From positions 1 to 60,083 of the forward strand of contig NZ_JARXWE010000017.1 of the NCBI RefSeq assembly GCF_029893235.1: 60,083 nt of DNA. Reading direction: 5' to 3'. Shown in pieces: positions 2,372 to 51,972 of the stretch. The stretch is from Dysgonomonas sp. PH5-45 (GTDB taxonomy: Bacteria; Bacteroidota; Bacteroidia; Bacteroidales; Dysgonomonadaceae). Position 1 is the first letter of the stretch. Each line of letters begins with the position of its first letter. A model generated the notes under the pieces. It did no database searches and was not told the DNA's origin. It saw only the letters and a list, made by a program, of their open reading frames with translations. The translations under genes and the position numbers were made by a program.

Positions 2372-2962
2372 TTATTTTTCTTTATTATCGGTTGCTAATG
2401 CCATGTTTCTCCAATTCAACAAACCGAAAACCGAAACTACGGCATAAACCGCATACAAAACAGCCGATGGGTACAATCCCATATAAAAGAACAATGCCGC
2501 CGAAACAACGTTGGCTACGATAAGCAGCAACCACTGTTCAGCATACCTTTGCGCCAACATCCACATGGCGGCAATACTCAGCGTTGTTATAAAACTATCG
2601 CCCCAAGCTACAGTGCTTTCTCCTAAATATTGCAACACATAGCCTATCAGTAAAAACAAAGTAATGACGACAGGTAATAAAAACAGAAAAACTTTCCGGG
2701 GTGCCCGCCTAACGTTCCTTTCGTCCGTTTGAGACGCTCTTCCCCACATAAACCACCCGTAAACGCCGGCAAGAATATAATATATATTGATGACAGCAAA
2801 AGCATATATCCCTGCCGATACAAAAACATATACATAGAACAACGACATGAGGATGCCTGTTGGCCACATCTTCATATCGGCTTTATACTCGTAATAGAGA
2901 TATAGAAGCCCGAACAATGTGCCCAACAGTTCCTGCCAATGTGTTTCTATGAAATTTATCAT
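2372..2962 (-). CDS. pnuT: PnuC-family vitamin transporter (thiamine-type, PnuT)
   Basis: 196-aa polytopic membrane protein (6-7 hydrophobic segments, W/Y-rich) typical of the PnuC/nicotinamide-riboside transporter family. It sits between a TonB-dependent receptor and TPK, under a TPP riboswitch. This is the classic Bacteroides thiamine-uptake arrangement. Confidence 0.75.
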   Translation of the reverse strand: MINFIETHWQELLGTLFGLLYLYYEYKADMKMWPTGILMSLFYVYVFVSAGIYAFAVINIYYILAGVYGWFMWGRASQTDERNVRRAPRKVFLFLLPVVITLFLLIGYVLQYLGESTVAWGDSFITTLSIAAMWMLAQRYAEQWLLLIVANVVSAALFFYMGLYPSAVLYAVYAVVSVFGLLNWRNMALATDNKEK

Positions 2963-2973
2963 TGATGGCGGTA

Positions 2974-5196: not shown

Positions 5197-5297
5197 TTAA
5201 AAATAAATTATCAAATAAATAAAAAAGGGGTCTTAAAAAAAAGAGATGATTACCAAATTTAGAACGCCCACAGTATTATATAACTCTTAAAGCGTAT

Positions 5298-5376
5298 CTA
5301 TCTCCCTACGCCGGTACTAACCGAATCAGGTTCGATGGGTATGATCTCAGCCTGTTTTTAGGCACCCCCTAAGATT
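5298..5376 (-). promoter_or_regulatory. TPP (thiamine pyrophosphate) riboswitch (THI element) in the 5' leader of the TonB-receptor/pnuT/TPK operon
   Basis: Minus-strand RNA reads ...AGGGGGUGCCUAAAAACAGGCUGAGAUCAUACCCAUCGAACCUGAUUCGGUUAGUACCGGCGUAGGGAGA.... This contains the invariant THI-box blocks GGGGUGCC, GCUGAGA, ACCC, ACCUGAU..GG.UA.UACC.GCGUAGGGA in the correct order and spacing. Boundaries are approximate. Confidence 0.88.
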
Positions 5377-5488
5377 TCGGGGCAAAGGTATATATTTTTC
5401 TATAAAAAGCTTACTAAATACAAACAATATTTACAATATAACATTAAATATACGTAACACACTTATAATCTGATGTATAAAATGGCAA

Positions 5489-6370
5489 TCAATCCATTCT
5501 GTAACCGAATTTACGGAGCAGATTGTCGCGGCTGCGCCAGTCTTTTTCTACCTTGACGTACATTTCGAGGAATATTTTTTTCTCAAAAAAGCGTTCAATG
5601 TCTTTCCGTGCCATTGCACCCACCTTTTTCAGAGCCAGCCCCTTATGGCCGATGATGATACCCTTTTGCGAATCGCGCTCGCAAACAATCAGCACCCGGA
5701 TGTTGATGATATCTTTTTCTTCTTTAAACTCCTCTACAACTACCTCCACGGCATAAGGTATTTCCTTTTGGTAATAAAGAAGTATTTTTTCGCGGATTAT
5801 TTCCGTAACAAAAAAACGGGCAGGGCGGTCGGTCAAAGCATCTTTCTCAAAATAGGGAGGCGATTCGGGTACAAGCTCCAACACTCTTTTCTTAACTAAA
5901 TCTACATTAAATTTGTTAAGTGCCGATATTGGGTATATCTCGGCCTTAGGCAACAATCCGTGCCACTCTTGCACCAATTCTTCCAGTTCCTTCTGATTGG
6001 TCTGGTCTACCTTATTTATAAGCAGTAATACCGGTGCATCAACATTCTGTACTTTGTGCAGAAACTCTTCGTTTTTGGCAGTCTTTTCAACTACATCGGT
6101 AACATAAAGCAGAACATCGGCATCGCTCAACGCCGATTCCGAGAAATTAAGCATCGACTCTTGCAACTTGTAGTTTGGGCGCAGCACTCCCGGTGTGTCC
6201 GAATATACTATCTGGTAATCTTCGGTATTAACTATCCCCAATATCCTGTGGCGGGTTGTTTGTGCCTTCGATGTGATGATTGATATACGCTCGCCCACCA
6301 GCGCGTTCATCAAAGTTGATTTCCCCACATTAGGATTGCCTACAATATTTACAAATCCGGATTTATGCAT
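5489..6370 (-). CDS. era: GTPase Era
   Basis: 293 aa. G1 motif GNPNVGKST, then TTR, DTPG and NKVD motifs, and a C-terminal KH domain (..GHKGLALKKVG..). Canonical Era. Confidence 0.92.
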   Translation of the reverse strand: MHKSGFVNIVGNPNVGKSTLMNALVGERISIITSKAQTTRHRILGIVNTEDYQIVYSDTPGVLRPNYKLQESMLNFSESALSDADVLLYVTDVVEKTAKNEEFLHKVQNVDAPVLLLINKVDQTNQKELEELVQEWHGLLPKAEIYPISALNKFNVDLVKKRVLELVPESPPYFEKDALTDRPARFFVTEIIREKILLYYQKEIPYAVEVVVEEFKEEKDIINIRVLIVCERDSQKGIIIGHKGLALKKVGAMARKDIERFFEKKIFLEMYVKVEKDWRSRDNLLRKFGYRMD

Positions 6371-6515
6371 TTTTCTCTTTCCTTATTATTTTTAATGTTG
6401 AAGTAACAAAGATAAATTTAATTATACAAAAAACGTATCTGCATTTACCGCAAATACGTTTTCGTTAATATGATGACAACAAAATATACTCTTGCAATTT
6501 TAAGTATTCTTTGTT

Positions 6516-7499
6516 TTAGTATGCCCATTTAAGGTAAATTGCACCCCAAGTAAAGCCCGCGCCAAAAGCAGCAAGGATTATATTATCGCCTTTCTTCAGT
6601 TGGCTTTCCCATTCGGCCAAGCAAACAGGTATCGTACCAGCACTGGTATTGCCATATTTCTGAATATTGATCATTACCTTATCGGACGACAAGCCCATAC
6701 GATTGGCTGCCGCGTCAATAATACGGAGATTTGCCTGATGAGGAATAAACCATGCTATATCGTCTTTGGTGAGATGGTTGCGTTCCATAATCTCAGCCGC
6801 TGTATCGGCCATTTTAGAAACAGCATGTTTAAATACAACTTGCCCGTCTTGGTAGATATAATGCCATTTGTTTTTTACGGTTTCTTCGGTTGCCGGATAA
6901 GCAGAACCTCCACCTTTCAGGTATAGGTGAGGAATACCAACACCATCTGTGTGCAAAATAGAATCCATGATACCTACATTTTCTTCGGTAGGCTCCAATA
7001 AAACAGCCCCTACGGCATCACCAAACAAAGGACAGGTTGTCCGGTCGGTATAATCTGTAACAGACGTCATTTTATCGCCTGCCACAACAATCACTTTTTT
7101 ATATTTGCCTGTACGCACAAAATTGGCTCCTGTTTCGAGGGCTACCAAAAAGCCAGAACATGCAGCTTCCATATCGAAAGCAAAGGCATTTTTTATCCCA
7201 ACATTCTCGCAAACAATAGCAGCCGTTGCCGGAAAAGCATGATCGGGAGTGGTGGTTGCGAAAATAAGTATTTCAACTTCTTCGGGACGGGTTTTTGTTT
7301 TTTCAAGCAACTTTTCCACTGCTTTTGTGCCCATCACAGAAGTTCCTTGCCCTTCTCCTCTCAATATACGACGCTCTTTAATACCTACACGTGTGGTTAT
7401 CCATTCGTCGCTTGTATCGACCATCTTGGCCAAATCGGCATTGGTTATAACATCTTCAGGAACATATGCTCCTATACCAGTTATCGCTGCTTGAATCAT
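6516..7499 (-). CDS. fabH: 3-oxoacyl-[acyl-carrier-protein] synthase III
   Basis: 327 aa. The [11 protein letters not shown] start, active-site Cys context (MEAACSGF), and the HQAN...N(T)SAGTIP and [10 protein letters not shown]-terminal motifs are diagnostic of FabH. Confidence 0.92.
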
Positions 7500-7524
7500 T
7501 GTTCTATGGTTTTATTTTTTATTA

Positions 7525-7562
7525 CAAAAAAACGCCCTAAAATTTTTGAGTCTTTTAGGGCT
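7525..7562 (-). terminator. Rho-independent terminator downstream of rpmF
   Basis: Inverted repeat GCCCTAAAA(gactcaaaaatt)TTTTAGGGC. On the minus strand it is followed by GTTTTTTT. Confidence 0.5.
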
Positions 7563-7578
7563 TTTATTGTCTCGACAA

Positions 7579-7764
7579 TCAAACTGCTACCTCTTTCTCT
7601 ATAGCCAATTTACCTCTGTAATATCCACAATCAGGACATACAGTGTGGTATTTATGCCATGAACCGCAATTTGAACAAACGGCCAATGTTGGAGCCACAG
7701 CTTTGTCGTGAGTTCTTCTTTTTGCTGTTCTCGATTTCGATTGTCTGTGCTTAGGATGTGCCAT
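7579..7764 (-). CDS. rpmF: 50S ribosomal protein L32
   Basis: 61 aa starting MAHPKHRQSKSRTAKRRTH, with a CxxC...CxxC zinc ribbon. Canonical L32. Confidence 0.93.
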   Translation of the reverse strand: MAHPKHRQSKSRTAKRRTHDKAVAPTLAVCSNCGSWHKYHTVCPDCGYYRGKLAIEKEVAV

Positions 7765-29076: not shown

Positions 29077-29949
29077 TTATACAAATGCCTTCAGACTCAT
29101 GTCTTTTACGGGAGCCGAATAGATAATAGCCCCTGATGAAATGAAATCGACACCTGTTTCTGCTATGCCCTTAACCGATTGGATGGTTATACCTCCCGAT
29201 GCTTCGGTTTTTGCTGTACCATTGATAAGCTTTACGGCCTCCGTCATTTGTTGAGGCGTCATATTGTCGAGCATAATAATATCGACCTGCTTTGTAGCAA
29301 TAGCCTCCCGCACTTCTTCCAGATTGCGGGTTTCAACTTCTATCTTTAAGTCAAGATTGTTTTCTTTCAGGTATCTGACGGTTGCTTCAACGGCTTGGGT
29401 TATTCCCCCCGCATAGTCGTTATGATTGTCTTTAAGCATAATCATATCATAAAGCCCATAACGGTGATTTTGCGCTCCACCAATATAGACAGCCCATTTT
29501 TCGCACATGCGGAAGTTCGGGGTTGTTTTGCGGGTATCCAGTATTTTTGTTTTTGTGTTGGCTACCAATGTGGCCATTTCTGCAGCCGAAGTTGCTATTC
29601 CACTCATTCGCTGCATGCAGTTTAAAACAAGGCGTTCGCAAGTAAGAATGGAGCGGGCAGAACCCGATACAATGAAAGCAATATCGCCTTTCTGTACTTT
29701 TTCGCCATCATTTTTCAGAACTTCCACTTTTAGGCTTTTGTCGTAATAACGGAAAATCTCTTGTGCCAAATCTACACCGGCCAATAAGCAATCGTCCTTT
29801 ATGAGCAAACGTGCTTTTTGCTGTGAATTTTGGGGAACACTTGCCAGAGTTGAATGGTCGCCACTGCCCACATCTTCGCGCAGGGCTTCGCTGATGAAGT
29901 GCCGCAAGTTTTCGGAGGTAACGTAATCGGGTCTATGCATTTTTGTCAA
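29077..29949 (-). CDS. nadC: Nicotinate-nucleotide pyrophosphorylase [carboxylating] (quinolinate phosphoribosyltransferase)
   Basis: 290 aa with conserved QPRTase blocks (LDTRKTTP, MLKDNH, IMLDNM). Confidence 0.9.
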   Translation of the reverse strand: MTKMHRPDYVTSENLRHFISEALREDVGSGDHSTLASVPQNSQQKARLLIKDDCLLAGVDLAQEIFRYYDKSLKVEVLKNDGEKVQKGDIAFIVSGSARSILTCERLVLNCMQRMSGIATSAAEMATLVANTKTKILDTRKTTPNFRMCEKWAVYIGGAQNHRYGLYDMIMLKDNHNDYAGGITQAVEATVRYLKENNLDLKIEVETRNLEEVREAIATKQVDIIMLDNMTPQQMTEAVKLINGTAKTEASGGITIQSVKGIAETGVDFISSGAIIYSAPVKDMSLKAFV

Positions 29950-31516
29950 GATCTTTGTTATAGAATGCCCCCCTGTTTTCGTTCTGCTCTATGCTTTGCG
30001 TTATGATAAGGAAAGCAACGCTCACAAGGTTTCGCAGCTCCGAGAGTTGAGGCGAAAGGATTGAAAAATTATATATTTCTTTTACCGAACGGTAAATTTC
30101 TTCTTCTTTTTGTTTTGCTAATTTCAGCCGGGCATTACTGCGGACTATCCCCACGAGATCGCTCATCAGCGTTTGCAACTCTTTGCGTAAATAATTGAGC
30201 AATACCATCTCTTCGTTTACACGCATCCCTTCTTGGTTCCATTCGGGTACTTTATTGAGGTTTATGTAGTTGAAGTCATCTTCGGCCAGCCTTTCAACGG
30301 TTTTCATGGCAGCCCGGTGACCAAAAACAAGGGCTTCGAGAAGTGAGTTCGAAGCAAGCCTGTTTGCCCCGTGCAGCCCCGTGTTGGAACATTCGCCAAC
30401 GGCAAACATATTTTTGATGGTGCTTTGTCCCACCAAATCTACTTCAATTCCTCCGCAAAGGTAATGACAAGCCGGAACCACAGGAATCAAGTCATTAAAC
30501 ATGTCCAGACCCTCGTCCTTGCATTGTTGGTAAATGTTGGGGAAATGTGCCATAAATTTATCGTGATCCAGATGGCGGCAATCCAGGCAAACATGGTCGT
30601 CGCCCCGGAGTTTCATCTCATTGTCGATGGCACGGGCTACGATGTCGCGCGAGGCGAGTTCCTCCCGTTCGTCGTACTTGTGCATGAAAGGTTCGCCCGA
30701 TACTGTGCGGAGCTTAGCTCCAAATCCACGCACGGCTTCCGATATGAGCGACAACTGTCCGGCCTTTCCGCTGTAAAATGCTGTGGGGTGGAATTGTATA
30801 AACTGCATATTGCTGATTTTGGCTTTTGCACGGTGAGCCAAGCCAATACCGTCGCCTGTTGCAATAAGGGGGTTTGTTGTGTTTTTATAAACATGCCCGC
30901 AACCACCTGTTGCCATGAGGGTTATTTTTGCCGACATTTTCTTTATCCTTCCGGTTTTCAGATTCAGCACATATGCCCCATAGCAGTTCAGATTGTATTT
31001 GTCGAACGATTCGTTTGGTACATGATGCTCGGTTATCAAGTCTATCACATAGTGATGATTCAGCAGTTCGATGTTTGGCTTGTGTTTTACTGCTTCCAAA
31101 AGAGCCCGTTCAATTTCAGCACCTGTTATATCCTTATAGTGAACCACCCGATTTTCGGTATGTCCGCCTTCGCGGCCAAGGTCGAAAGTTTGCTCGTTAT
31201 TTTTGTCGAAGTTTGCTCCCCATTCCACAATTTCACGAACTCTTTCGGGGCCTTCTTTCACCACTACTTCAACGGCTTCTTTTTTGCACAACCCGTCGCC
31301 GGCACGCAAGGTGTCGGCAATGTGTTTTTCAAAACTGTCTGTTTCGAAGTTGGTTACGACAGCTACGCCGCCTTGTGCATATTTTGTGTTCGATTCTTCG
31401 TCGTCCGATTTTGTGAGAACCGTAATCTTTGCATCGGGTTTCTTTTGTGCAATTTTCAGCGCATACGATAGTCCTGAAATTCCAGACCCTATCACCAATA
31501 CATCTGTATATATCAT
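29933..31516 (-). CDS. nadB: L-aspartate oxidase
   Basis: 527 aa. N-terminal FAD-binding GSGISGL (GxGxxG), plus a succinate-dehydrogenase/fumarate-reductase flavoprotein-like fold (HYxxGG). Overlaps the nadC start by 17 bp. Confidence 0.9.
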   Translation of the reverse strand: MIYTDVLVIGSGISGLSYALKIAQKKPDAKITVLTKSDDEESNTKYAQGGVAVVTNFETDSFEKHIADTLRAGDGLCKKEAVEVVVKEGPERVREIVEWGANFDKNNEQTFDLGREGGHTENRVVHYKDITGAEIERALLEAVKHKPNIELLNHHYVIDLITEHHVPNESFDKYNLNCYGAYVLNLKTGRIKKMSAKITLMATGGCGHVYKNTTNPLIATGDGIGLAHRAKAKISNMQFIQFHPTAFYSGKAGQLSLISEAVRGFGAKLRTVSGEPFMHKYDEREELASRDIVARAIDNEMKLRGDDHVCLDCRHLDHDKFMAHFPNIYQQCKDEGLDMFNDLIPVVPACHYLCGGIEVDLVGQSTIKNMFAVGECSNTGLHGANRLASNSLLEALVFGHRAAMKTVERLAEDDFNYINLNKVPEWNQEGMRVNEEMVLLNYLRKELQTLMSDLVGIVRSNARLKLAKQKEEEIYRSVKEIYNFSILSPQLSELRNLVSVAFLIITQSIEQNENRGAFYNKDLDKNA

Positions 31517-31526
31517 CCCATCATGT

Positions 31527-32555
31527 TTATTTGATATTCTTCGAAAGCTCCAACATCTTGTTTATAGGGCGTAGAGCTTTTAACCGTAGTTCTTCGTCCA
31601 TCAAGATTTCGGGGAGTTCATATTTCATGCACAAATACAATTTTTGCATTGTATTCAACTTCATAAAGTGACATTCGCTGCAATTGCAGGTCTCGTCGAC
31701 TGTCAGCGCGGGAATAAGTTTTTTGTGCGGAGCGCGTTTACGCATCTCGTGGAGGATTCCTTCTTCGGTGGCAACGATAAACTCTCTGCAATCGTCATTC
31801 ACTACATAGTTCAACAGATTGGCAGTGGACCCTACATGATGCGCCACTTGCAACACTGGTTTTTGAGCTTCGGGGTGGGCAATCAGTTTAGCATTGGGGT
31901 GTTCGAGCATTTGTTGAGCAATACGCTCAAGCGAGAAAGCTTCGTGCACGATGCAAGCTCCATCCCAAAGAATCATGTTGCGCCCTGTTATCTGATTGAT
32001 ATAGCGCCCCAGATTGCGGTCGGGAGCAAATATTATTTTTTGATCTTGTGGCAATGAGTTGATGATGTGTTCAACGTTAGACGAAGTGACGATAATATCG
32101 CTTTCGGCTTTTACCGTCGAATCGCAATTAATGTAGCTCACAACAATGGCATCGGGATGCTTTTCTCTTAAAGCCCGTAAGCCTTCGCCCGAACAAGAGT
32201 CGGCTAACGAACAACCAGCCAGAAGATCGGGCAAGACAACTTTTTTGGTGGGGTTCAGTATTTTTGCAGTTTCAGCCATGAAGTGAACGCCGCAAAAAAC
32301 AATCATGTCGGCATCCGTATTTTCGGCAGCCCGTGCCAATTGTAGGCTATCACCCAGAAAATCGGCAATATCTTGGATATCGCCTATCTGATAATAGTGA
32401 GCCAAAATAATGGCATTTTTTTCTTTTCGCATCCGGTTTATTTCTTCAACCAGATTTGTACCCTCAGGTATTGGCATATCCAGATAGCCTTTAACTTTAA
32501 GGTTTTCGATAGCTTTTTGGAGTGTTGACATATTATGATTTAATGAAATAGGCAC
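31527..32555 (-). CDS. nadA: Quinolinate synthase A
   Basis: 342 aa. Three conserved Cys for the 4Fe-4S cluster and NadA blocks (ILAHYYQ, FCGVHFMAET, VSYINCDS). Confidence 0.9.
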   Translation of the reverse strand: MPISLNHNMSTLQKAIENLKVKGYLDMPIPEGTNLVEEINRMRKEKNAIILAHYYQIGDIQDIADFLGDSLQLARAAENTDADMIVFCGVHFMAETAKILNPTKKVVLPDLLAGCSLADSCSGEGLRALREKHPDAIVVSYINCDSTVKAESDIIVTSSNVEHIINSLPQDQKIIFAPDRNLGRYINQITGRNMILWDGACIVHEAFSLERIAQQMLEHPNAKLIAHPEAQKPVLQVAHHVGSTANLLNYVVNDDCREFIVATEEGILHEMRKRAPHKKLIPALTVDETCNCSECHFMKLNTMQKLYLCMKYELPEILMDEELRLKALRPINKMLELSKNIK

Positions 32556-32658: not shown

Positions 32659-33444
32659 TTATTGCTCTGTATTTTTAGCTTCGTTCCAGAGTGCGTCCAT
32701 TTGGGCTAAGGTCATGGTTTTTATGTCCTTGCCCTGTTCTTTTGCTTTCTGCTCAATATAGTTGAAGCGGCTGATGAACTTCTGGTTGGTACGTTCCAGA
32801 GCATTATCGGGATTTACTTTATAGAGGCGCGCGGCGTTGATGAGGCTGAAAAACAGGTCTCCGAATTCTGATTCCATCCGGTCGGGGTTCATTTGGCTTA
32901 CTTCCGATTGTAGTTCCTGATATTCTTCTTGCACTTTTTGCCAGACGTCTTCCTTCTGATTCCAGTCGAAACCTGCATTGCGGGCTTTGTCTTGTATGCG
33001 GTGGGCTTTTGCTATTGATGGCAACGATGCAGGTACGCCTTCGAGTACGGTTTTGTTACCTCCTTTTTCTTTAAGCTTTATTTGCTCCCACGATTTTTCT
33101 ACTTCGCCGGCTGTTGCTGCCGCATCATCGCCAAAAACATGGGGATGGCGGAACACAAGCTTGTCGCAAAGGGCGTTGCATACATCGGCAATGTCGAAAG
33201 CGTTCTTTTCTTCGCCTATCTTTGCATAAAAAACCACATGGAGCAACACATCGCCAAGTTCTTTTTTTATTTCTTGGTTGTCGTTACGGATGATTGCTTC
33301 GCACAGCTCGTAGGTTTCTTCTATTGTATTGGTACGCAGGCTTTCGTTTGTTTGTTTTGCATCCCAAGGACACTTTACACGTAGTTCGTCCATCGTATCG
33401 AGTAGGCGGCCAAAAGCCTGCATTTTTTGTTCTTTAGTATTCAT
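32659..33444 (-). CDS. mazG: Nucleoside triphosphate pyrophosphohydrolase MazG
   Basis: 261 aa. Tandem MazG all-alpha NTP-PPase domains with the EExxE...ELGDxL motif (IEETYELCEAI...ELGDVLLHVVFYA). Confidence 0.85.
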   Translation of the reverse strand: MNTKEQKMQAFGRLLDTMDELRVKCPWDAKQTNESLRTNTIEETYELCEAIIRNDNQEIKKELGDVLLHVVFYAKIGEEKNAFDIADVCNALCDKLVFRHPHVFGDDAAATAGEVEKSWEQIKLKEKGGNKTVLEGVPASLPSIAKAHRIQDKARNAGFDWNQKEDVWQKVQEEYQELQSEVSQMNPDRMESEFGDLFFSLINAARLYKVNPDNALERTNQKFISRFNYIEQKAKEQGKDIKTMTLAQMDALWNEAKNTEQ

Positions 33445-37172: not shown

Positions 37173-37715
37173 GTGCTGATAGCTCAACAAAAGAAAAAAG
37201 AAAATATTGCCGAATACCTGCTGTATATGTGGCAGGTAGAAGATTTGATTCGTGCCAACGGATTGGATATCAATAAAATTCAGCAAAATATTATTGATAA
37301 ATTCAATCAGCCGGAAGACGTAAAACAACAAATACATGACTGGTATGCCAATCTGGTGGAAATGATGCGGTTGGAACATGTTGCGCAAACGGGGCATCTT
37401 CAGATAAATAAAAATATCATCATAGATTTAACCGATTTGCACTTGCGTTTGCAGAAGTCGCCACAGGAAGCATTCTATACAACAGCCTATTATAACGCTT
37501 TGCCCTATATTGTGGAACTACGGGCTAAAAACAAAAAAACGGACGTGCCAGAAATAGAGACTTGTTTTGAAGCCCTTTACGGATTTCTCCTGTTGCGGAT
37601 GCAAAACAAAGAAGTGTCGGCACAGACTCAGACTGCAATTAAGCAAATATCCGCTTTTTTGCGGATTCTTGCCGAAAAATATAGGCAGGAGAGGGATGGC
37701 GAATTGGAATTATAA
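37173..37715 (+). CDS. Hypothetical protein (DUF4924-like)
   Basis: 180 aa, all-helical and charged. In Bacteroides, such an ORF commonly precedes rfbD. The family name is from memory. Confidence 0.45.
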   Translation: MLIAQQKKKENIAEYLLYMWQVEDLIRANGLDINKIQQNIIDKFNQPEDVKQQIHDWYANLVEMMRLEHVAQTGHLQINKNIIIDLTDLHLRLQKSPQEAFYTTAYYNALPYIVELRAKNKKTDVPEIETCFEALYGFLLLRMQNKEVSAQTQTAIKQISAFLRILAEKYRQERDGELEL

Positions 37716-37744
37716 CAAAAAAACATACAAAACTTACATTAAAA

Positions 37745-38626
37745 ATGTATATGCAAAAAAATATATTAGTAACAGGGGCTAACGGTCAGTTGGGTAGCGA
37801 ATTGAGGAGAATTGTTAGTAATGACGGAACTAACTTTCGTTTTTTCTTTACAGATGTGGCCGAACTTGATATAACTAACCCGGAAGCAGTGGAGGCTTTT
37901 GTTTCTGGAAATTCTATCGATTATATAATTAATTGTGCTGCTTATACGGCTGTCGATAAAGCGGAAGATGATGAGGAACTTTGCCGGAAAATAAATACGG
38001 ATGCGGTACGCAATCTGGGAATGGCTGCGACGAAACATGGGGCGAGGGTTATTCATGTGTCGACCGACTATGTTTTTGATGGAACAAAAACGAGTCCTTA
38101 CGTCGAAACTGATGCCGTCTGTCCAAAGTCGGTTTATGGTATTACCAAGCAGGCAGGCGAAGCTGTATTGCAGGAGGTTTGCCCCGAATCGGTTATTATC
38201 CGCACGGCATGGCTGTATTCAGTTTATGGGAATAATTTTGTAAAAACCATGATTCGTCTGGGTAAGGAGCGCAACGAACTGAATGTTGTATCCGACCAAA
38301 CAGGCACGCCAACCAACGCCGCCGATTTAGCAAAAGCAATAGTAAATATATTAAATATGGCCGAAAAAGGAGGTTTCGTTCCGGGCATATATCATTATTC
38401 TGACGAGGGAGTTACGACCTGGTACGACTTTACTGTAGCTATTCATAAATTGGCAGGTATTACAAGCTGCAAAGTGAATCCGATACCAACAAGTGCCTAT
38501 CCCACGCGCGCCGTCAGACCACAATATAGCGTATTGGATAAAACTAAAATAAAAACAGTCTACAGCCTTGGAATACCTCGCTGGGAAGATAGTTTGGCTG
38601 TTTGCATCGATGAGTTGTTGAACTAA
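37745..38626 (+). CDS. rfbD: dTDP-4-dehydrorhamnose reductase
   Basis: 293 aa. N-terminal NAD(P)-binding LVTGANGQLG, plus an SDR catalytic YxxxK region (YGITKQAGE). RmlD-type length and C-terminus. Confidence 0.88.
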   Translation: MYMQKNILVTGANGQLGSELRRIVSNDGTNFRFFFTDVAELDITNPEAVEAFVSGNSIDYIINCAAYTAVDKAEDDEELCRKINTDAVRNLGMAATKHGARVIHVSTDYVFDGTKTSPYVETDAVCPKSVYGITKQAGEAVLQEVCPESVIIRTAWLYSVYGNNFVKTMIRLGKERNELNVVSDQTGTPTNAADLAKAIVNILNMAEKGGFVPGIYHYSDEGVTTWYDFTVAIHKLAGITSCKVNPIPTSAYPTRAVRPQYSVLDKTKIKTVYSLGIPRWEDSLAVCIDELLN

Positions 38627-38682
38627 TTGTCCCGTCCTAAAAAGGGGCTATAGGTTTAATTAGACAAAATATTAATAATTTA

Positions 38683-38724
38683 TGAGATAGTTGTCGAGCT
38701 AGCCCGACAACTATCTTTGTTTTT
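38683..38724 (+). terminator. Rho-independent terminator of rfbD
   Basis: GAGATAGTTGTCG(agctagcc)CGACAACTATCTTTGTTTTTT. A perfect 12-13 bp stem followed by a T-run. Confidence 0.75.
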
Positions 38725-38910
38725 TACAGGTTTTGATATCTACATTTTTTTGCTTTGCATTTCATCTGAAGTTTTCATGGATCATCCCGAATTCTTGTGA
38801 AGACAAATTTAATTTTTCGAGCGAGAAGAAGAAATAGAATATAGTATCAATCAAAAGGAAAATCACCATAAGCTGCTAACAATAAGTATTCTATAGATAC
38901 AAAATACGCC

Positions 38911-38928
38911 AACTCTATATATAAAGCT
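38911..38928. repeat. Left copy of the 18-bp perfect direct repeat AACTCTATATATAAAGCT flanking the AT-rich SIR2 cassette
   Basis: The exact 18-mer recurs at 40858-40875 in the same orientation. The copies are 1,947 bp apart and bracket the single SIR2-domain gene. Confidence 0.8.
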
Positions 38929-39340
38929 CCCTATTAAATCAAAAAAAATATCTTTTTGTTTTCTCCTCCACAACTTTCCAGGGTGATCCCAAATTTTTGT
39001 TTTTAAGTTTCTAAATAAAAGAAGCGTACTATCTTCCGTCCTATTTCGTCTATTTGAATTTGCGGATTCCTATAAACTGGACATAAAAAGTACAATCCCC
39101 CTATAATGGGAGCTTTATTCTGATAACAAAGATATAATATTTTGTAGGATACAAATATTTTAATCTATAAAGATGAGATAAATATAATTTGCGTGAAATT
39201 AAATGGAACTAAAAATCTATACTGAAATTCTTTTACTCTTTCGTACTAAAATGATTACTTTTAATGCAATTTTGTTAACACTCAATATAATTTGTATTTT
39301 TGAGATATGCAGAAAACAATCGACCAAAAAGGATAATATT

Positions 39341-40669
39341 ATGGGATGTGAATGCGTGCATTGCAAAAATAATCTTCCATTTGATTTACCACATGAGATT
39401 ATTGAGGCTGCAAAGAACGGAAATTTAGTGATTTTTGCAGGTGCGGGGATTAGTACAGAATCAAAGAGAATATTTAAAGAAACCTTATATGGAGATGTGG
39501 CTTTAGATTTAGACCTTCCTGCTAATACAAATTATGATTTCCCAACCTTAATGTCCTTATATTGCGAACAAAAGAATGGGAGACAATTACTATTAGAAAA
39601 AATTAGGCATCGATTTGAATATTGCCATCAATTTAATGAGCTATATATGGATGCTACAAGCTTTCACCGAGAGTTATCATCAATATATTTGATAGATACA
39701 ATCTTTACTACTAACTGGGACGATTATTTTGAAAGAGAGTGTAATGCAATCCCAATTGTAACAGCAGAAGATTTTGCTTTTTATAATACTTCTGGTCGAA
39801 AAGTTTTCAAGATTCATGGCTCAATAAGTAATTATGGAAGTATTATTGCAACTACAGAAGATTATAATAATTGCTATAAAAATCTTAAATCGGGATTAAT
39901 GGGTAGTTATTTGAAAACTATTTTAGCTACCAAGACTGTTGTTTTTATAGGTTTTTCATTTAACGATTTCGACTTCAATAAGATATATTCTTATCTTAAA
40001 AAGGAAATGAGAGATATTTTGCCTCATTGTTATATTGTTACCATAGACAATTCATTCAAAGAAAGATTTGCAAAAGAAAAAGCAACTGTAATTAATACGG
40101 ACGGGAGATATTTTATATCAATTATTAGAGAACATTTAGAGGGTTCAAATTATCTAATTCCAAAAGACAATCTTGAAACAATAGAACTATTATCAATTTT
40201 AAATGCTAAAGCCCATAGAGTTTCTACCGACTTATATTACGAGAAAAAATCTACAACAAGATTATATAATTTATTTTATCAGGATGGTCTTAAACATGCT
40301 TTTGATTATTTTATGTACCATTCCAAGTCAGGAATAATATTTAATGCTGAAAAAATATTTAATCAGATTAAAACTTATGAGTATTTTAAAAAGGGAATGC
40401 TAAAAGCCAAAAACTACCCAGATTATACCTATGTTGAGGGGTATATTATGGGCTTATACTCAATTATTGATAAAAATATAATTGATGATTTTCCTCTTTA
40501 TTATATTATTGGATTGGGGCATGTAAATGACAATAAAGAGTATATTTCTTTATTAGAAGAGCAGGAAATTTATCACAAAACGGCAGATAAAATAGGAAAA
40601 AAATATTTCAAAGAATACTTCGATGAAAAAACCGAAACAGTCCCGCATCATAGACCTTTTATATTTTAA
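39341..40669 (+). CDS. ThsA-like SIR2 (SIR2_2/DHS-like NAD-binding) domain protein with an uncharacterised C-terminal domain of about 200 aa; candidate stand-alone NADase defence effector
   Basis: About 442 aa from the Met at 39341. The track ORF starts at 39203, but the first 46 codons are low-complexity AT-rich leader. The N-terminal half aligns by eye to the SIR2 domain of Thoeris ThsA: LVIFAGAGIS (ThsA AAIFAGAGLS); TTNWDDYFE (ThsA TTNYDRLIE; catalytic Asn); KIHGSI...TTEDY (ThsA KMHGDV...IKDDY; catalytic His); VVFIGFSFNDFDF (ThsA FLFVGFSFTDPNL). A short CxCxHC motif lies at the extreme N-terminus. The C-terminal half has no SLOG-like Gly-rich motifs. The gene is about 30% GC, against about 43% for the neighbours. 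Confidence 0.8.
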   Translation: MGCECVHCKNNLPFDLPHEIIEAAKNGNLVIFAGAGISTESKRIFKETLYGDVALDLDLPANTNYDFPTLMSLYCEQKNGRQLLLEKIRHRFEYCHQFNELYMDATSFHRELSSIYLIDTIFTTNWDDYFERECNAIPIVTAEDFAFYNTSGRKVFKIHGSISNYGSIIATTEDYNNCYKNLKSGLMGSYLKTILATKTVVFIGFSFNDFDFNKIYSYLKKEMRDILPHCYIVTIDNSFKERFAKEKATVINTDGRYFISIIREHLEGSNYLIPKDNLETIELLSILNAKAHRVSTDLYYEKKSTTRLYNLFYQDGLKHAFDYFMYHSKSGIIFNAEKIFNQIKTYEYFKKGMLKAKNYPDYTYVEGYIMGLYSIIDKNIIDDFPLYYIIGLGHVNDNKEYISLLEEQEIYHKTADKIGKKYFKEYFDEKTETVPHHRPFIF

Positions 40670-40857
40670 ATTTTAAGAACATAAGCGAATATACCAACTT
40701 CCCGAAAGATTTCTTAGTAAGAACAAAAGACAACCTCAACAATTACGAAGGGGATTATGCTGTTACAAATTTGATTAATAGCTATTTATGGCTAATAATT
40801 ATTCCTGATGAATTATTAATAAAAAAGTTACCTAATTACCAATTTACAGATAATGAT

Positions 40858-40875
40858 AACTCTATATATAAAGCT
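40858..40875. repeat. Right copy of the 18-bp direct repeat AACTCTATATATAAAGCT
   Basis: Identical to 38911-38928. Lies 62 bp from the 3' end of the tRNA-Pro gene. Confidence 0.8.
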
Positions 40876-40937
40876 TATAAAACGGAAACCATAGCGGAAA
40901 CAAAAAAGCCTAACTAATAATAGTCAGACTCTATTTG

Positions 40938-41012
40938 TCGGGATACCAGGATTCGAACCTGGGACCCCCTGCTCCCAAAGCAGGTGCGCTAACCGGACTG
41001 CGCTACATCCCG
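40938..41012 (-). tRNA. tRNA-Pro (anticodon UGG)
   Basis: Minus-strand 75-nt cloverleaf: CGGGATG-TA-GCGC-AGTCCGGTTA-GCGC-A-CCTGC-TTTGGGA-GCAGG-GGGTC-CCAGG-TTCGAAT-CCTGG-TATCCCG-A. It has a 7-bp acceptor stem, U33, anticodon TGG, G37, a GGTTCGAATCC T-arm, and no encoded CCA. Confidence 0.9.
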
Positions 41013-41360
41013 TAACAGGTGGCATTTAAACCGATGCAAAAGTACCACTTTTTTTTTAACTACAAAACTTTTTTGCGTTTTTTCGAATAAAGAAAAGCAA
41101 ACAATTTTTATTGTAAAGGTGTTTGGGGCTTTTTAGTACAAAATAATAAAGCAAGAATATGTTGATTTTACAACTGTAAAAACATGCGGCATACAATTAT
41201 ATCACTATATTGCACATCAAAACAAACAAGTACTTTTCATGAGAAAGTTTAATATAGTTGTCCTCCTTACACTTCTTCTCCTTTTCGTTTCGTGCCAGAA
41301 GAGACAGGATATAGACAATCTATTTTCAGAATAGAAACTTCAACAACCTCAATAATAAAT

Positions 41361-47527: not shown

Positions 47528-50500
47528 TTATTTCAAATTATTAATCATCAAATGCAGTCGGTTCACTATGTTTACATCGCTTACACCGCTATCGTAGTCG
47601 AGCGATAATAAGTTCATCCGAGGGTAAAGTGTTTTTATTTTTTTCTCCACTCCTTTAGCCACAATATGATTGGCAATACACCCAAAGGGCTGCAATGACA
47701 CCACATTATTCACATTCTGCTTGGCATACGACACAACTTCGGCCGGCAACAACCACCCTTCGCCAAACTGCGCTGTCAACGACACAATGCCCTTAGCGTG
47801 TTCCGACTCTTCAAATATATCGGGCAATGGCACGAAGTACCGAAAAGCAGACGATGCTTCATTTACTTTATTCACATATTTATAAGTAAGCTTATAGATT
47901 TTCTTCATCAGCCAATCTGGCAAACCAGACCGTTCCAAATTACTTTCCTTCGAATATTTCCTGTTTACAAAGGTCTGCAAAAAGAAATTACTCAACATCG
48001 GAGGGCATACCTCTATCTTATTTTCTATCAACCAATTTATGACATCACGATTAGCAAACGAATGGAATTTCAGATATATCTCTCCAACAATTCCAACTTT
48101 CTGATAGCTATCATCATCATTGACAATACCATTAAAGTCAGCTGCCGCAGTAGCCAACAGCTGCAACAATCCTTTAGAATCGTTAGCGGCTATACGCTGA
48201 TTGGCGGCTTCTATATAATAATCTCTCAACTTCTGAGCCTGCCCCCTACTCTTTTCGCGTACCACCGAAGCGTGATAGAATTGCGACAGGCAGTCGCCAA
48301 ACAATATGGCGGTAAGTGTAATCTTTATTATCTTGAACCAATTTATATCAAAGCCCGACTGTTCGTTGCTCAATCCGCCAAAAGCCAGTGCAACAACAGG
48401 TATTTGTGGGTATCCGGCATCCACCAAGCCATTCTTTATTAAGGCAATGTAATTAGTGGCACGACATTGCCCTCCTGTTTGTGTTATAGCTACGGCGGTG
48501 TTTTCAGGGTCGTATTTTCCGGATTGTACGGCCTTAATAATATCACCTACAACCAGTGTTGCCGGATAGCAAACCTCGTTGTTTGCATATTTCAGTCCGG
48601 TTTCGGCCGATTCTATATCGCTCTTGGGCAACTGATCTACCTCAAAGCCCGAAAGCTTTAGTATGGTAGGCACAAACGGCGAAAGATAGTCTGTAAAGAA
48701 AGGCGCGATAATCTTCCGCTTTTTCTTGTCTTCCTTCCGGTAAACTTTTGTTGTAACAAAGGGTTTGATTGCCCCCGACTTAGCGCCACTGTATTTAAGG
48801 CTTTCGATGAGAGATCTTACACGTAGTTTGATGGAACCGATATTGCTTACATCATCCAACTTCAGTATAGTCAACGATTTATTGTGCCGTTTCAGTATAT
48901 TAGCTATTTCGTCCAGCAAAAAAGCATCGGGGCCACAACCAAAAGACGTCATCTGCATGAAATGAATATTCGCACCTTCCGTGGCAACCCATTTGGCAGC
49001 TTTTGTTATACGGTTAATGTATGCCCATTGCGATATCATGTGAGTTTCGCGGTCTACATCAATGCTATCGTTGTTCCGTGTAATATCTTCCGTCAAAACA
49101 TTTACTCCTAAATCGGCAATCATGTCCGATAGTTTGTGTTGCACAAGCGGATCACTGTGATAAGGTCTACCGGCCAAAAGAATAGACAATCGCCCCTCTT
49201 CACAGCTTTTCTTATACAAAAGTTCGTTTGCTTCCCGCATTTCCTCCTCATACCGGAGCTGAGCGGCAAGTGCCTTATCGACCGCCCTGCAAACCTGCTT
49301 ATCGGAAACACCCAATGTTTTGAAATAAACTATACAATTTTTCTTCAGCAGTTTTTCGTCCTTAAATGTTATGTTGGGCGAATCGACAGGTATATTGTAG
49401 CTTTCAAGAGGGCCTATTGCGCTTTTCACCACATCCGAATAACCCGACACGATTGGGCAATTATAGCTATTCACCGCCTTTGCGTTTTCTTGCCTCTCAT
49501 AAACCACATAAGGAAAAAAGATGCGGTCTACACCTTTTTCCATCAAATCGTAAATATGACTATGAACCAACTTTGCAGGAAAACAAATATTATCAGACAT
49601 CACCGAATGGACTCCCTCCTCATATTTCTTGAAAGTTGAGGGTTCCGACAAGTATGTTTGTACACCACATTCGTTGAACAAAGCGTTCCAGAACGGATAA
49701 TTTTCGAACATATTCAAAATACGGGGTATGCCCACCACAGGCTTCGACGCATCGCCACTCAGCCTTGGGCGATTAAATATCTTATCGTATTTGTCTGTAT
49801 ATAGGTTAGTGCCTCTTACTTGTGCCGCCGCACCGTTCGAAAATATTTTTTCACACTTATTTCCGGAATAATAAATATTTCCGTTATCGAATGTATATTT
49901 ATTGATGAGGCAAACGTTTTCGCATCCACGGCAATTAATCTGCCGGGCTGTGTATTGGGCTGCCTGCAACAGGTCTTGGAGCTTTACAACTTTCGTTTGG
50001 CTCTGCATCGACTTCGAAAACAAAGCGCATCCGTAAGCCCCCATCAGTTCGGGCAGGTTGCTACGATGCACTTCCAAGCCTATAAGGTTCTCGAAGGCTC
50101 GCACAACCGAATCGTTGCGCATAGTGCCTCCCTGAACTACAATATGCCGGCCCAGCTCTGTGGTATTTTTCAGTTTAAGGACTTTATACAAACAGTTTTT
50201 CACTACCGAATAAGACAGCCCCGCCGAAATATCGGCTACGGTAGCCCCCTCGCGCAAAAACTGTTTTACCTTCGAGTTCATGAACACCGTACAGCGCGTA
50301 CCCAAATCGCAAGGATACTTGGCCGTACAGGCAATCTTTGCAAAATCTTGCACCGTATAATTCAGCGATTTAGCAAACGTTTCGATAAACGACCCACAGC
50401 CCGACGAACAAGCCTCGTTTATCTCCATTCGGTATAATGCCCCGTTTTCGATAAACATGGCCTTCATGTCCTGCCCACCAATGTCGAGGATAAAAGAGAC

Positions 50501-51760
50501 TTCGGGGTCCATCGTTTTTGCCGATAAATAATGGGCTATTGTCTCTATCACCCCATAATCGAGCCCAAATGCCGCTTTTATTAAATCTTCGCCATATCCG
50601 GTGGAGCAACTGCCTTTTATTTGCAGATCTACGCCTGCTTCATGACTTTTGGCAAGCAGTTCTGACAAACCATTACGGACAGCCTGTATAGAGTTCCCTT
50701 GATTGGGAGCATAGTAGCTATAAAGAAGGTTTCCGGCTTCGTCAATCAACGTTATTTTGGTTGTTGTTGAACCCGAATCTATACCCAGATAGCAGTAACC
50801 TTTGTGATCTTTAAGCGGTGTGGATTTTATTTGTTTTTTATTTTTTTGCTCATGCCATTCCTTAACATCCTGATCATTACTGAAAATCGCTTCCAAACGA
50901 TTATCTATTTTCAAATCGAGCCCTTTTTCCTCTTTTTGTAAGAATTCTAAGAACCCCGACAATACTACCGGCTCAGCCTCTGTCCTATCGGCCAAAGCAG
51001 CCCCCCATGCAGGGAGCAGGTTTGAGTTGTCAAGAATCACATAATCGTCTTCGTTCAGATGTAGATAGTTTATAAAGGCATTCCGCAAAGCGGGAATAAA
51101 AGTAAGAGGCCCTCCGCAAAACAATACTCTGGGGTTTATGCTGCATCCGTGCGATAATGTAACAACAGTCTGCACGGCTATCGCATGAAAAATAGACGCC
51201 GCAATATCGGCTTTCGATACATTTTTACTCACCAAGTTCTGGACATCGGTCTTCGAGAACACACCACAGCGCGAAGCTATGGGATATACATGTTCGGCCT
51301 GCAAAGCCAAAGAGTTCATCTCCTCTATGCTGCAATCGAGCAGAATTGACATTTGATCTATAAAGGCACCCGTCCCTCCGGCACAGTTGCCATTCATTCG
51401 CATATCGGGTACACCCCTATCCGAAAAGTAAATAACCTTGGCATCTTCGCCGCCGATATCTATTACAGTCGAGATATTTGAGAATTTCTTTTTTATCAGA
51501 TTTGATACAGCAACAACTTCTTGCTCAAAGGGAATAGAAAACCGTTCTGAAAGCCCCATGCCTGCCGATCCGGTTATAGTTAAGCCTATTTTACATTCGC
51601 CAACAACCGCCAACAATTGCCCAAACAACGTGCGAACTGCTGTTTTCACATCGGCATGATGCCGTTCATATTTAGAGAAGATTATCTGTCCCGAATCGTC
51701 TACAGCAACCATTTTTGCAGTAGTAGATCCTACATCCAATCCCACTTTAAATATATTCAT
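47528..51760 (-). CDS. Fused 2-hydroxyacyl-CoA dehydratase-like / BadF-BadG-BcrA-BcrD (HgdC-type) activase ATPase protein
   Basis: About 1,410 aa from the Met at 51760. N-terminal MNIFKVGLDVGSTTAKMVAV is the ASKHA-fold activase motif. A second activase repeat appears near CYLGIDSGSTTTKITLID. Intervening and C-terminal Cys-rich regions resemble HgdAB/YjiM dehydratase components. Confidence 0.75.
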   Translation of the reverse strand: MNIFKVGLDVGSTTAKMVAVDDSGQIIFSKYERHHADVKTAVRTLFGQLLAVVGECKIGLTITGSAGMGLSERFSIPFEQEVVAVSNLIKKKFSNISTVIDIGGEDAKVIYFSDRGVPDMRMNGNCAGGTGAFIDQMSILLDCSIEEMNSLALQAEHVYPIASRCGVFSKTDVQNLVSKNVSKADIAASIFHAIAVQTVVTLSHGCSINPRVLFCGGPLTFIPALRNAFINYLHLNEDDYVILDNSNLLPAWGAALADRTEAEPVVLSGFLEFLQKEEKGLDLKIDNRLEAIFSNDQDVKEWHEQKNKKQIKSTPLKDHKGYCYLGIDSGSTTTKITLIDEAGNLLYSYYAPNQGNSIQAVRNGLSELLAKSHEAGVDLQIKGSCSTGYGEDLIKAAFGLDYGVIETIAHYLSAKTMDPEVSFILDIGGQDMKAMFIENGALYRMEINEACSSGCGSFIETFAKSLNYTVQDFAKIACTAKYPCDLGTRCTVFMNSKVKQFLREGATVADISAGLSYSVVKNCLYKVLKLKNTTELGRHIVVQGGTMRNDSVVRAFENLIGLEVHRSNLPELMGAYGCALFSKSMQSQTKVVKLQDLLQAAQYTARQINCRGCENVCLINKYTFDNGNIYYSGNKCEKIFSNGAAAQVRGTNLYTDKYDKIFNRPRLSGDASKPVVGIPRILNMFENYPFWNALFNECGVQTYLSEPSTFKKYEEGVHSVMSDNICFPAKLVHSHIYDLMEKGVDRIFFPYVVYERQENAKAVNSYNCPIVSGYSDVVKSAIGPLESYNIPVDSPNITFKDEKLLKKNCIVYFKTLGVSDKQVCRAVDKALAAQLRYEEEMREANELLYKKSCEEGRLSILLAGRPYHSDPLVQHKLSDMIADLGVNVLTEDITRNNDSIDVDRETHMISQWAYINRITKAAKWVATEGANIHFMQMTSFGCGPDAFLLDEIANILKRHNKSLTILKLDDVSNIGSIKLRVRSLIESLKYSGAKSGAIKPFVTTKVYRKEDKKKRKIIAPFFTDYLSPFVPTILKLSGFEVDQLPKSDIESAETGLKYANNEVCYPATLVVGDIIKAVQSGKYDPENTAVAITQTGGQCRATNYIALIKNGLVDAGYPQIPVVALAFGGLSNEQSGFDINWFKIIKITLTAILFGDCLSQFYHASVVREKSRGQAQKLRDYYIEAANQRIAANDSKGLLQLLATAAADFNGIVNDDDSYQKVGIVGEIYLKFHSFANRDVINWLIENKIEVCPPMLSNFFLQTFVNRKYSKESNLERSGLPDWLMKKIYKLTYKYVNKVNEASSAFRYFVPLPDIFEESEHAKGIVSLTAQFGEGWLLPAEVVSYAKQNVNNVVSLQPFGCIANHIVAKGVEKKIKTLYPRMNLLSLDYDSGVSDVNIVNRLHLMINNLK

Positions 51761-51972
51761 ATCAAATCTGTATTTATCTTTCAGCACCCACAACCAACAG
51801 TGCATTTTTTCTCAAGAACAAAGATATAACAAATCTTATTTTCAAACAGGCGTTTAATACATTTTTTAAGAAATACGAACATCGAATTAAGAATAAGAAA
51901 AAAGAGATACCCATAGCGGATATCTCTTTCCATAATCTAAAAAAACCGTCAAGGAAAAAACCTGTTAAATGT

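Follow-up and report, generated by a model that had tools for sequence, protein, structure and literature searches.

Prokaryotic immunity makes repeated use of SIR2 NADases as effectors, and the systems that employ them are distinguished by the mode in which the enzyme is activated. In type I Thoeris, ThsA (6lhx, 8bto) carries a SLOG domain at its C-terminus and has a ThsB/TIR neighbour. DSR2 (~1000 amino acids (aa), e.g. 8k98) is a single protein with an N-terminal SIR2 NADase, a MID part and an alpha-solenoid C-terminal domain; SIR2-HerA (Nezha) comes with an adjacent HerA; and in Kongming the 264-aa SIR2 protein KomC acts with KomA and KomB, the KomBC filament being activated by dITP. A stand-alone Sir2 protein of ~440 aa, sole-Sir2, converts NAD+ to ADP-ribose in vitro, and a close homologue of it protects E. 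coli against T2 and T4; sole-Sir2 is described as having a C-terminal Sir2 domain and an unrelated N-terminal part, and its gene as lying within type I-C cas operons (bioRxiv 10.1101/2024.12.27.630466). Here we report on a gene for a 442-aa SIR2 protein of Dysgonomonas sp. PH5-45, located on contig NZ_JARXWE010000017.1 in a stretch of 60,083 nucleotides (nt) that is referred to below as the window. A preliminary description of this DNA had proposed an orphan ThsA-like SIR2 NADase with a novel C-terminal domain, horizontally acquired and possibly acting as a single-gene anti-phage system. Its interpretation proved largely right, and the checks suggested with it spoke in its favour; it overlooked a HEPN remnant downstream of the gene and overrated how new the protein is. 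Judged by its sequence and predicted structure, the protein is a credible candidate for a single-protein sensor-effector, and we rate its role as a defence NADase as slightly more probable than an even chance.

The SIR2 domain

The open reading frame (ORF) of the SIR2 protein is real and intact, and by the register of its predicted catalytic residues the N-terminal domain is a defence-type SIR2 domain of the ThsA/DSR2/KomC clade. The protein scored 75.1 bits against the Pfam SIR2_2 model (PF13289; gathering threshold 24.5, E=7.6e-21, aa 120-244), and the family profile was aligned over its positions 24-286 to Bacillus cereus ThsA (6lhx) with E=1.4e-15. In that alignment GAGIS is paired with GAGLS, TTN125WD with TTN112YD, KIH159GS with KMH152GD, and GFSFND with GFSFTD. 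Both N125 and H159, which thus stand in register with ThsA N112 and H152, are 100% conserved in 184 family members. The SIR2 domain was also profile-aligned to DSR2 and KomC, and the matches of the whole AlphaFold2 model in Foldseek were limited to the SIR2 domains of DSR2, KomC and ThsA (E ~1e-10 to 1e-11). The closest proteins by sequence and by fold are therefore defence NADases throughout, not classical deacetylases. These results bear out the SIR2 call of the preliminary description as well as its choice of the catalytic Asn and His, and from them we infer that the protein hydrolyses NAD+.

The domain is preceded by a cysteine cluster, C3-x-C5-x2-C8, in which C8 is shared by 96%, C5 by 95% and C3 by 73% of the same 184 members. 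Further conserved cysteines in the family alignment are C75, C134 and C178, and together with the cluster they could possibly form a metal site.

The cluster is also relevant to the choice of the start codon, since an alternative ATG at 39203 would yield a protein of 488 aa. In the alignment, the N-termini of the homologues all match the position of MxCxCxxC, which reads MGCECxxC in the window protein, and DNA-level similarity with the nearest relatives begins at 39288-39318. A putative -7 box, TATTTTTG, is present at 39295; it follows TAnnTTTG, which we take to be the Bacteroidetes promoter consensus. The start at 39341 is favoured because of these three features. The nearest relatives are the genes at loci L083 (protein 91% identical) and L001 (85% identical). 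Comparison with the former gave a ratio of nonsynonymous to synonymous substitution rates (dN/dS) of 0.069 overall and 0.07 in each domain, so that both domains of the SIR2 protein are under strong purifying selection.

The C-terminal domain

Neither Pfam nor NCBIfam has a model for the C-terminal domain. Its relatives were searched for in BFVD, where none was found below E=0.3, and by sequence profile in the PDB, where none was found; the AlphaFold and Foldseek check suggested in the preliminary description likewise returned no detectable relative. The AlphaFold2 model of the full-length protein, built from a 38-sequence alignment, had a mean predicted local distance difference test score (pLDDT) of 89.3 and a predicted template modelling score (pTM) of 0.86, and this pTM suggests that the SIR2 and C-terminal domains are packed as a single unit. 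Residues 270-442 modelled in isolation (pLDDT 95.4) formed a bundle of long helices with a small beta hairpin and a C-terminal tail. The tail, H437-x-P-F, was modelled with higher confidence as part of the whole protein than when the domain was modelled alone, and a contact between it and the SIR2 domain is possible.

SLOG domains have a Rossmann-like alpha/beta fold. Since the C-terminal domain is a helical bundle in the AlphaFold2 model, it is not a SLOG domain, as had been stated from the lack of Gly-rich loops; in agreement with this, the PADLOC ThsA1 model was matched over its positions 12-233 of 478 only, that is, over the SIR2 part. Conservation in the C-terminal domain is high, reaching at least 93% at each of Y313-Q-D-G316, H319, G331, Y346, Y364, G367 and H437; the same holds for the CxxC pair C5/C8 of the N-terminal cluster, and H412 and the H437-x-P-F tail also count among the near-invariant or invariant positions.

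When 1.84 billion representative proteins were searched with a profile of the C-terminal domain, 363 hits were obtained, 302 of them with E <=1e-10. In the best 150 hits the domain always stands at the end of the protein, full-length proteins being 420-493 aa long, and the shorter hits inspected begin at an internal Met or in the middle of the domain and resemble truncated gene calls. The C-terminal domain therefore occurs only in this fusion with SIR2, which answers the question raised earlier of whether it recurs beside other effectors, and other architectures for it were rejected on the same search. We regard it as the probable sensor or regulatory module of the SIR2 protein.

The family and its gene neighbourhoods

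A full-length search of 5.8 billion proteins returned 886 hits, more than 120 of which covered 99-100% of the query and were 440-455 aa long; the two-domain family amounts to ~300 clusters at 50% identity. One genome per species was considered in a set of 185,579 species genomes, and 109 relatives were found there with 35-45% identity to the query. The bacterial ones belong to Bacteroidota, Patescibacteria, Bacillota, Acidobacteriota, Planctomycetota, Actinomycetota, Chloroflexota and Pseudomonadota, and the archaeal ones to Bathyarchaeia, Nitrosopumilaceae and Micrarchaeia. The family is thus scattered very thinly and in patches. Of 69 loci, 58 have a family gene that is richer in AT than its flanks (median GC difference -8.8 points, never above +3).

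To characterise the neighbours, ORFs were called in 81 loci and all neighbouring products were clustered, 130 of them being immediate neighbours. Besides the family itself, the largest cluster was present in 13 of the 81 loci and was not adjacent to the SIR2 gene. No Pfam family was common to more than three of the 130 immediate neighbours; TIR, HerA and Argonaute did not recur among them by Pfam, and the orientation of the neighbours relative to the family gene was mixed. Hence the family has no conserved partner gene in these 81 loci, and the claim that the gene lacks a partner holds beyond the window, where no other ORF of at least 60 aa is present in the island around it. Genes related to defence are numerous next door; among them are DRT reverse transcriptases, type IV and type II restriction enzymes, HEC-05, ShosT, PARIS AriA and MADS. 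No CRISPR array was found within 10 kb of ~94 family loci, and a CRISPR association of the kind known for sole-Sir2 was accordingly rejected.

Several members are found in mobile contexts. The one at L172-L174 lies inside an integrative mobilizable element (relaxase, MobC, integrase) together with PLD, HEPN and TIR genes; the region 2647-7713 there holds the PLDc_2 and HEPN genes, a divergently oriented gene for a 459-aa TIR_2 protein and the gene for its 507-aa partner with no Pfam hit, and the latter two may represent a separate TIR system. At L164-L168 (6438-9341) a DUF1706 - KilA-N - SIR2 trio was found beside an IS91-family transposase and integrase fragments in two flanking contexts that differ on the left, which suggests a small mobile cassette in Proteiniphilum-like genomes. 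The member on the Corynebacterium glutamicum plasmid pCGR2 is near a MobF relaxase gene and a gene for a 1000-aa N6 methylase. As to phages, no family member was found in INPHARED and one full-length copy, close to a contig end, in IMG/VR; the possibility that the gene is phage-borne was rejected on these grounds.

The genomic island and the HEPN remnant

In the window, the SIR2 gene is located in an AT-rich insert between rfbD and a tRNA-Pro(TGG) gene (Table 1). The GC content at its third codon positions (GC3) is 0.22, compared with 0.37-0.39 in the flanking genes, which are ordinary Bacteroidota housekeeping genes (DUF4924, rfbD and an M1 peptidase with a type IX secretion system tail). By GC, GC3 and context the gene is thus foreign, and the acquisition proposed in the preliminary description, as well as the position next to a tRNA gene, agree with these data.

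The term orphan requires a qualification. No other ORF of at least 60 aa was found in 38627-41291. In both L083 and L001, however, an intact gene for a 141-aa HEPN protein of the pEK499_p136 family (PF18736) lies on the same strand 11-34 nt downstream of the SIR2 gene (L083 2681-3106, L001 11364-11789), and a remnant of it is present in the window; because of this the gene is not strictly an orphan. The remnant corresponds to the first 61 codons, with 85% identity to the L083 protein by tblastn, and starts with ATA where the relatives have ATG. About 310 bp are missing, equal to the C-terminal 80 codons and including the part that bears RNGLAHG (Rx4H) in the relatives. The remnant matched PF18736 with E=2e-11, the match being confined to positions 3-68 of the 152 in the profile; the remnant therefore comprises neither a complete domain nor an intact ORF. 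The dN/dS of the fragment was 0.39, a value which is an average over the whole divergence and comes from a short fragment.

The L083 contig terminates in the same tRNA-Pro sequence as is found in the window, while at L001 the SIR2-HEPN cassette adjoins tRNA-Ser(GGA) with unrelated flanks and is AT-rich (GC 0.257 vs ~0.34). It follows that the cassette is mobile, sits beside tRNA genes and is decaying at the edges. L083 additionally contains, upstream of the SIR2 gene at 470-1304, a segment with two short ORFs (70 and 141 aa) that the window does not have; these have the appearance of fragments from an abortive-infection gene of the AbiGi type (phrog_13416; PF10899 at E=0.0014, which falls short of the cut-off).

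The direct repeats described earlier as flanking the cargo were confirmed in part. The exact 18-nt repeat AACTCTATATATAAAGCT is real and exceeds the longest repeat (17) in 500 Markov-1 simulations. Its downstream copy, however, falls at the deletion junction in the HEPN remnant, and therefore it does not mark a clean island boundary; the scar of a rearrangement is a likelier origin for the repeat than a clean attachment site. The upstream copy lies in 38627-39155, an AT-rich segment of ~530 nt in which neither strand has an ORF of 40 aa or more; the segment resembles neither L083 nor L001 and may be decayed island cargo.

The DUF4924-rfbD pair (window 37173-38626) is kept in most of ~80 Bacteroidales-like metagenome contigs (L084-L163), and as synteny stops in them right after rfbD, the island is placed at a synteny break. 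An empty site was also sought. Exact look-ups of the SIR2 and RfbD proteins gave nothing, and a metagenome scan with RfbD found relatives of <=64% identity only, in which DUF4924-rfbD is present with no tRNA-Pro or M1 peptidase downstream. For this reason an island-free allele could not be shown.

Table 1 Features of the SIR2 locus in the window
Feature	Position	Strand	Basis
Coding sequence, 442 aa + stop, SIR2 + C-terminal domain	39341..40669	+	ORF list; >120 full-length homologues of 440-455 aa; AlphaFold2
SIR2 (SIR2_2) NADase-type domain, aa 15-268	39383..40144	+	Pfam PF13289; PADLOC ThsA1 model (SIR2 part); profile alignments; Foldseek
Predicted catalytic Asn125	39713-39715	+	Profile alignment to ThsA
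Predicted catalytic His159	39815-39817	+	Profile alignment to ThsA
N-terminal Cys cluster C3-x-C5-x2-C8	39347..39364	+	Conservation among 184 members
All-alpha C-terminal domain, aa 270-442	40148..40666	+	AlphaFold2 model; conserved residues
Candidate Bacteroidetes-type -7 promoter box TATTTTTG	39295..39302	+	Regular-expression search; 38 nt upstream of ATG
HEPN pEK499_p136 pseudogene remnant	40681..40917	+	Homologous part 40681-40863; tblastn, DNA alignment, Pfam
AT-rich insert between rfbD and tRNA-Pro	38627..40936	.	GC 0.288 vs 0.405 in the window
tRNA-Pro(TGG)	40937..41012	-	ARAGORN; cassette just 3' of the tRNA
Direct repeat AACTCTATATATAAAGCT, exact 18 nt, upstream copy	38911..38928	.	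Repeat search and simulation
Direct repeat AACTCTATATATAAAGCT, downstream copy	40858..40875	.	Coincides exactly with the deletion junction of the HEPN remnant

Elsewhere in the window, two genes of de novo NAD synthesis, those for NadB (FAD_binding_2, L-aspartate oxidase type) and NadA (quinolinate synthase), are found at 29933-32555, 7-9 kb upstream of the SIR2 gene, followed by a MazG pyrophosphohydrolase gene at 32659-33444. These are probably housekeeping genes, and their nearness to a predicted NADase is probably a coincidence. The product of a 1425-aa ORF at 47528-51805 has DUF2229, of the CoA-enzyme activase type, and two ATPase regions of the BadF/BcrA type; its N-terminus also resembles an IS110 transposase weakly, a match that is probably spurious.

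Discussion

From these observations a mode of action may be proposed. The N-terminal domain would be an NAD+ glycohydrolase of the ThsA/DSR2/KomC type, kept off until infection by the tightly packed helical C-terminal domain. Given the deep conservation and low dN/dS of this domain, an invariant ligand is a likelier trigger than a fast-evolving phage protein, and the candidates would be a nucleotide-like small molecule or a conserved feature of a nucleic acid or protein. Once activated, probably as an oligomer like other SIR2 enzymes of defence systems, the protein would hydrolyse NAD+ and thereby abort phage replication. The gene may have arrived as a small tRNA-proximal cassette together with the HEPN RNase gene, which would then have decayed and left the SIR2 gene as the sole intact cargo. 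An anti-phage role is suggested by the kinship with defence NADases, the patchy spread and foreign composition of the family, its defence-rich and mobile surroundings and the precedent of sole-Sir2. A more specific proposal is tentative and in our opinion rather unlikely: the C-terminal domain would be a fold not recognised before, and it would either bind a conserved nucleotide or small molecule present at the time of infection or be a second enzyme acting on the product of the SIR2 domain.

Some of the data speak against a defence function or blunt the evidence for it. Strong conservation of the C-terminal domain would be compatible, too, with a second catalytic activity or with a role in structure alone. 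PADLOC family matches numbered 158 for the 130 immediate neighbours and 24 for 106 control genes lying over 7 kb away in those loci, but this enrichment is a rough count, the PADLOC models being redundant and the ORF calling crude. In one case the family gene lies between housekeeping genes with no marks of a mobile element, and the family is nearly absent from phage collections (INPHARED 0, IMG/VR 1 full-length).

Three other explanations were weighed. The SIR2 protein may be one half of a two-gene system in which the HEPN (pEK499_p136) RNase is a second effector or a regulator, and the window copy would then be crippled or non-functional. The close spacing of the two genes in L083 and L001, their presence as a unit at two different tRNA genes and the 61 HEPN codons retained in the window are in line with such a pair, and operons that combine the pEK499_p136 family with NAD-using ART and Macro enzymes have been described (PMC3710099). 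Searches of the other 80 family loci with tblastn and phmmer, however, found no HEPN homologue, the SIR2 family has no conserved neighbour of any kind, and the SIR2 gene of the window is intact and has a dN/dS of 0.07 against the 0.39 averaged over the whole divergence of the short HEPN fragment; consequently, we hold the two-gene system to be improbable. It is even harder to maintain that the protein is a Thoeris-like effector with a distal synthase, the C-terminal domain having replaced SLOG as the receptor of a nucleotide signal made by a TIR or another enzyme. The SIR2 domain is indeed nearest to ThsA by profile, the invariant polar and aromatic residues of the C-terminal domain resemble a small-molecule pocket, and one member is located beside a divergently oriented TIR_2 gene in a defence island. 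On the other hand, any one TIR family occurs in at most 1 of the 130 immediate neighbours, and a TIR query had 0 matches among 1372 neighbouring ORFs, the organism's own genome being covered over 60 kb only. To the best of our knowledge, the genes of known Thoeris systems are adjacent to each other. This explanation is therefore very improbable.

A role outside immunity has also to be considered. SIR2 enzymes catalyse several NAD-dependent reactions, and the protein might be a SIR2 deacylase, an ADP-ribosyltransferase, or an addiction or inter-bacterial toxin, with the C-terminal domain selecting the substrate. Strong purifying selection and a C-terminal domain so deeply conserved are uncommon in phage sensors, and some members are found among metabolic genes. 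The very sparse and patchy spread, the AT-richness of the gene relative to its flanks, the enrichment of defence genes next door and the fact that the nearest relatives are all defence NADases argue against it, and we consider a non-immune function about as improbable as the two-gene system.

If the C-terminal domain is such a receptor or second enzyme, one 442-aa protein would both sense infection and respond to it with no dedicated signal synthase, and the family would stand as a widespread single-protein immune module of its own, set off by a new trigger and found across bacteria, lineages of the candidate phyla radiation and archaea. The ligand of the C-terminal domain could reveal a new infection signal or a new gating of NAD+ depletion. 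From Bacteroidota to Bathyarchaeia the family represents a compact effector with a conserved orphan domain and no partner gene, and its small size and high-confidence structure prediction make it tractable for structural and biochemical work. There is also a gap in annotation, as PADLOC 2023 has no model that covers the whole family protein.

Comparison with known systems

The theme of a SIR2 NADase with a sensor domain is already known, and the family itself is well populated and uncharacterised. The novelty claimed in the preliminary description has to be narrowed to this extent: the protein stands outside the described systems tested, yet hundreds of full-length homologues are already deposited, labelled just as SIR2 family protein, and a ~440-aa sole-Sir2 is described in a preprint.

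Type I ThsA is the best match to the SIR2 domain by sequence and is similar in size (476 vs 442 aa), but an all-alpha bundle is found in the window protein where ThsA has SLOG, and a ThsB/TIR gene is found neither in the window island nor as a recurrent neighbour of the family. A divergent SLOG domain, and hence ordinary Thoeris, was rejected on the fold of the C-terminal domain and the lack of TIR neighbours. DSR2, the top Foldseek match, is likewise a single protein, and its N-terminal SIR2 NADase belongs to the same subfamily; it differs in the MID and alpha-solenoid domains, which are absent from the window protein, and in being more than twice as large, and we would not expect a sensor that tracks a phage protein, as in DSR2, to be so highly conserved. 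A mini-DSR2 was considered as well, because a single-sequence phmmer alignment with DSR2 reached residue 343, but the match of the family profile stops at 242, so that the extension is unsupported and the candidate was rejected. The DSR1 model (NCBIfam NF041818) gave 11.8 bits with a curated cut-off of 1400.

As regards SIR2-HerA, HerA is absent from the window island and no HerA family is found among the recurrent neighbours. KomC resembles the window protein in sequence and fold as a ThsA-like SIR2 NADase, but it is without a further domain, and the family lacks a conserved partner of the KomA or KomB kind. The PADLOC candidate PDC-S25, a single-gene SIR2 candidate, was matched weakly in the SIR2 core with E=1.5e-15 at model positions 107-238 of 517; as this match does not include the C-terminal domain, PDC-S25 is a different family.

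The closest precedent in concept is sole-Sir2, which is also a single ~440-aa protein with one Sir2 domain. As sole-Sir2 is described, the order of domains is reversed and the gene is set in cas operons; the comparison was made by description only, and the two may be the same family. The defining features of every other described system tested are absent from the window protein, which, on the evidence of full-length similarity including the YQDG...HHxPF C-terminal domain, fits an uncharacterised family of its own.

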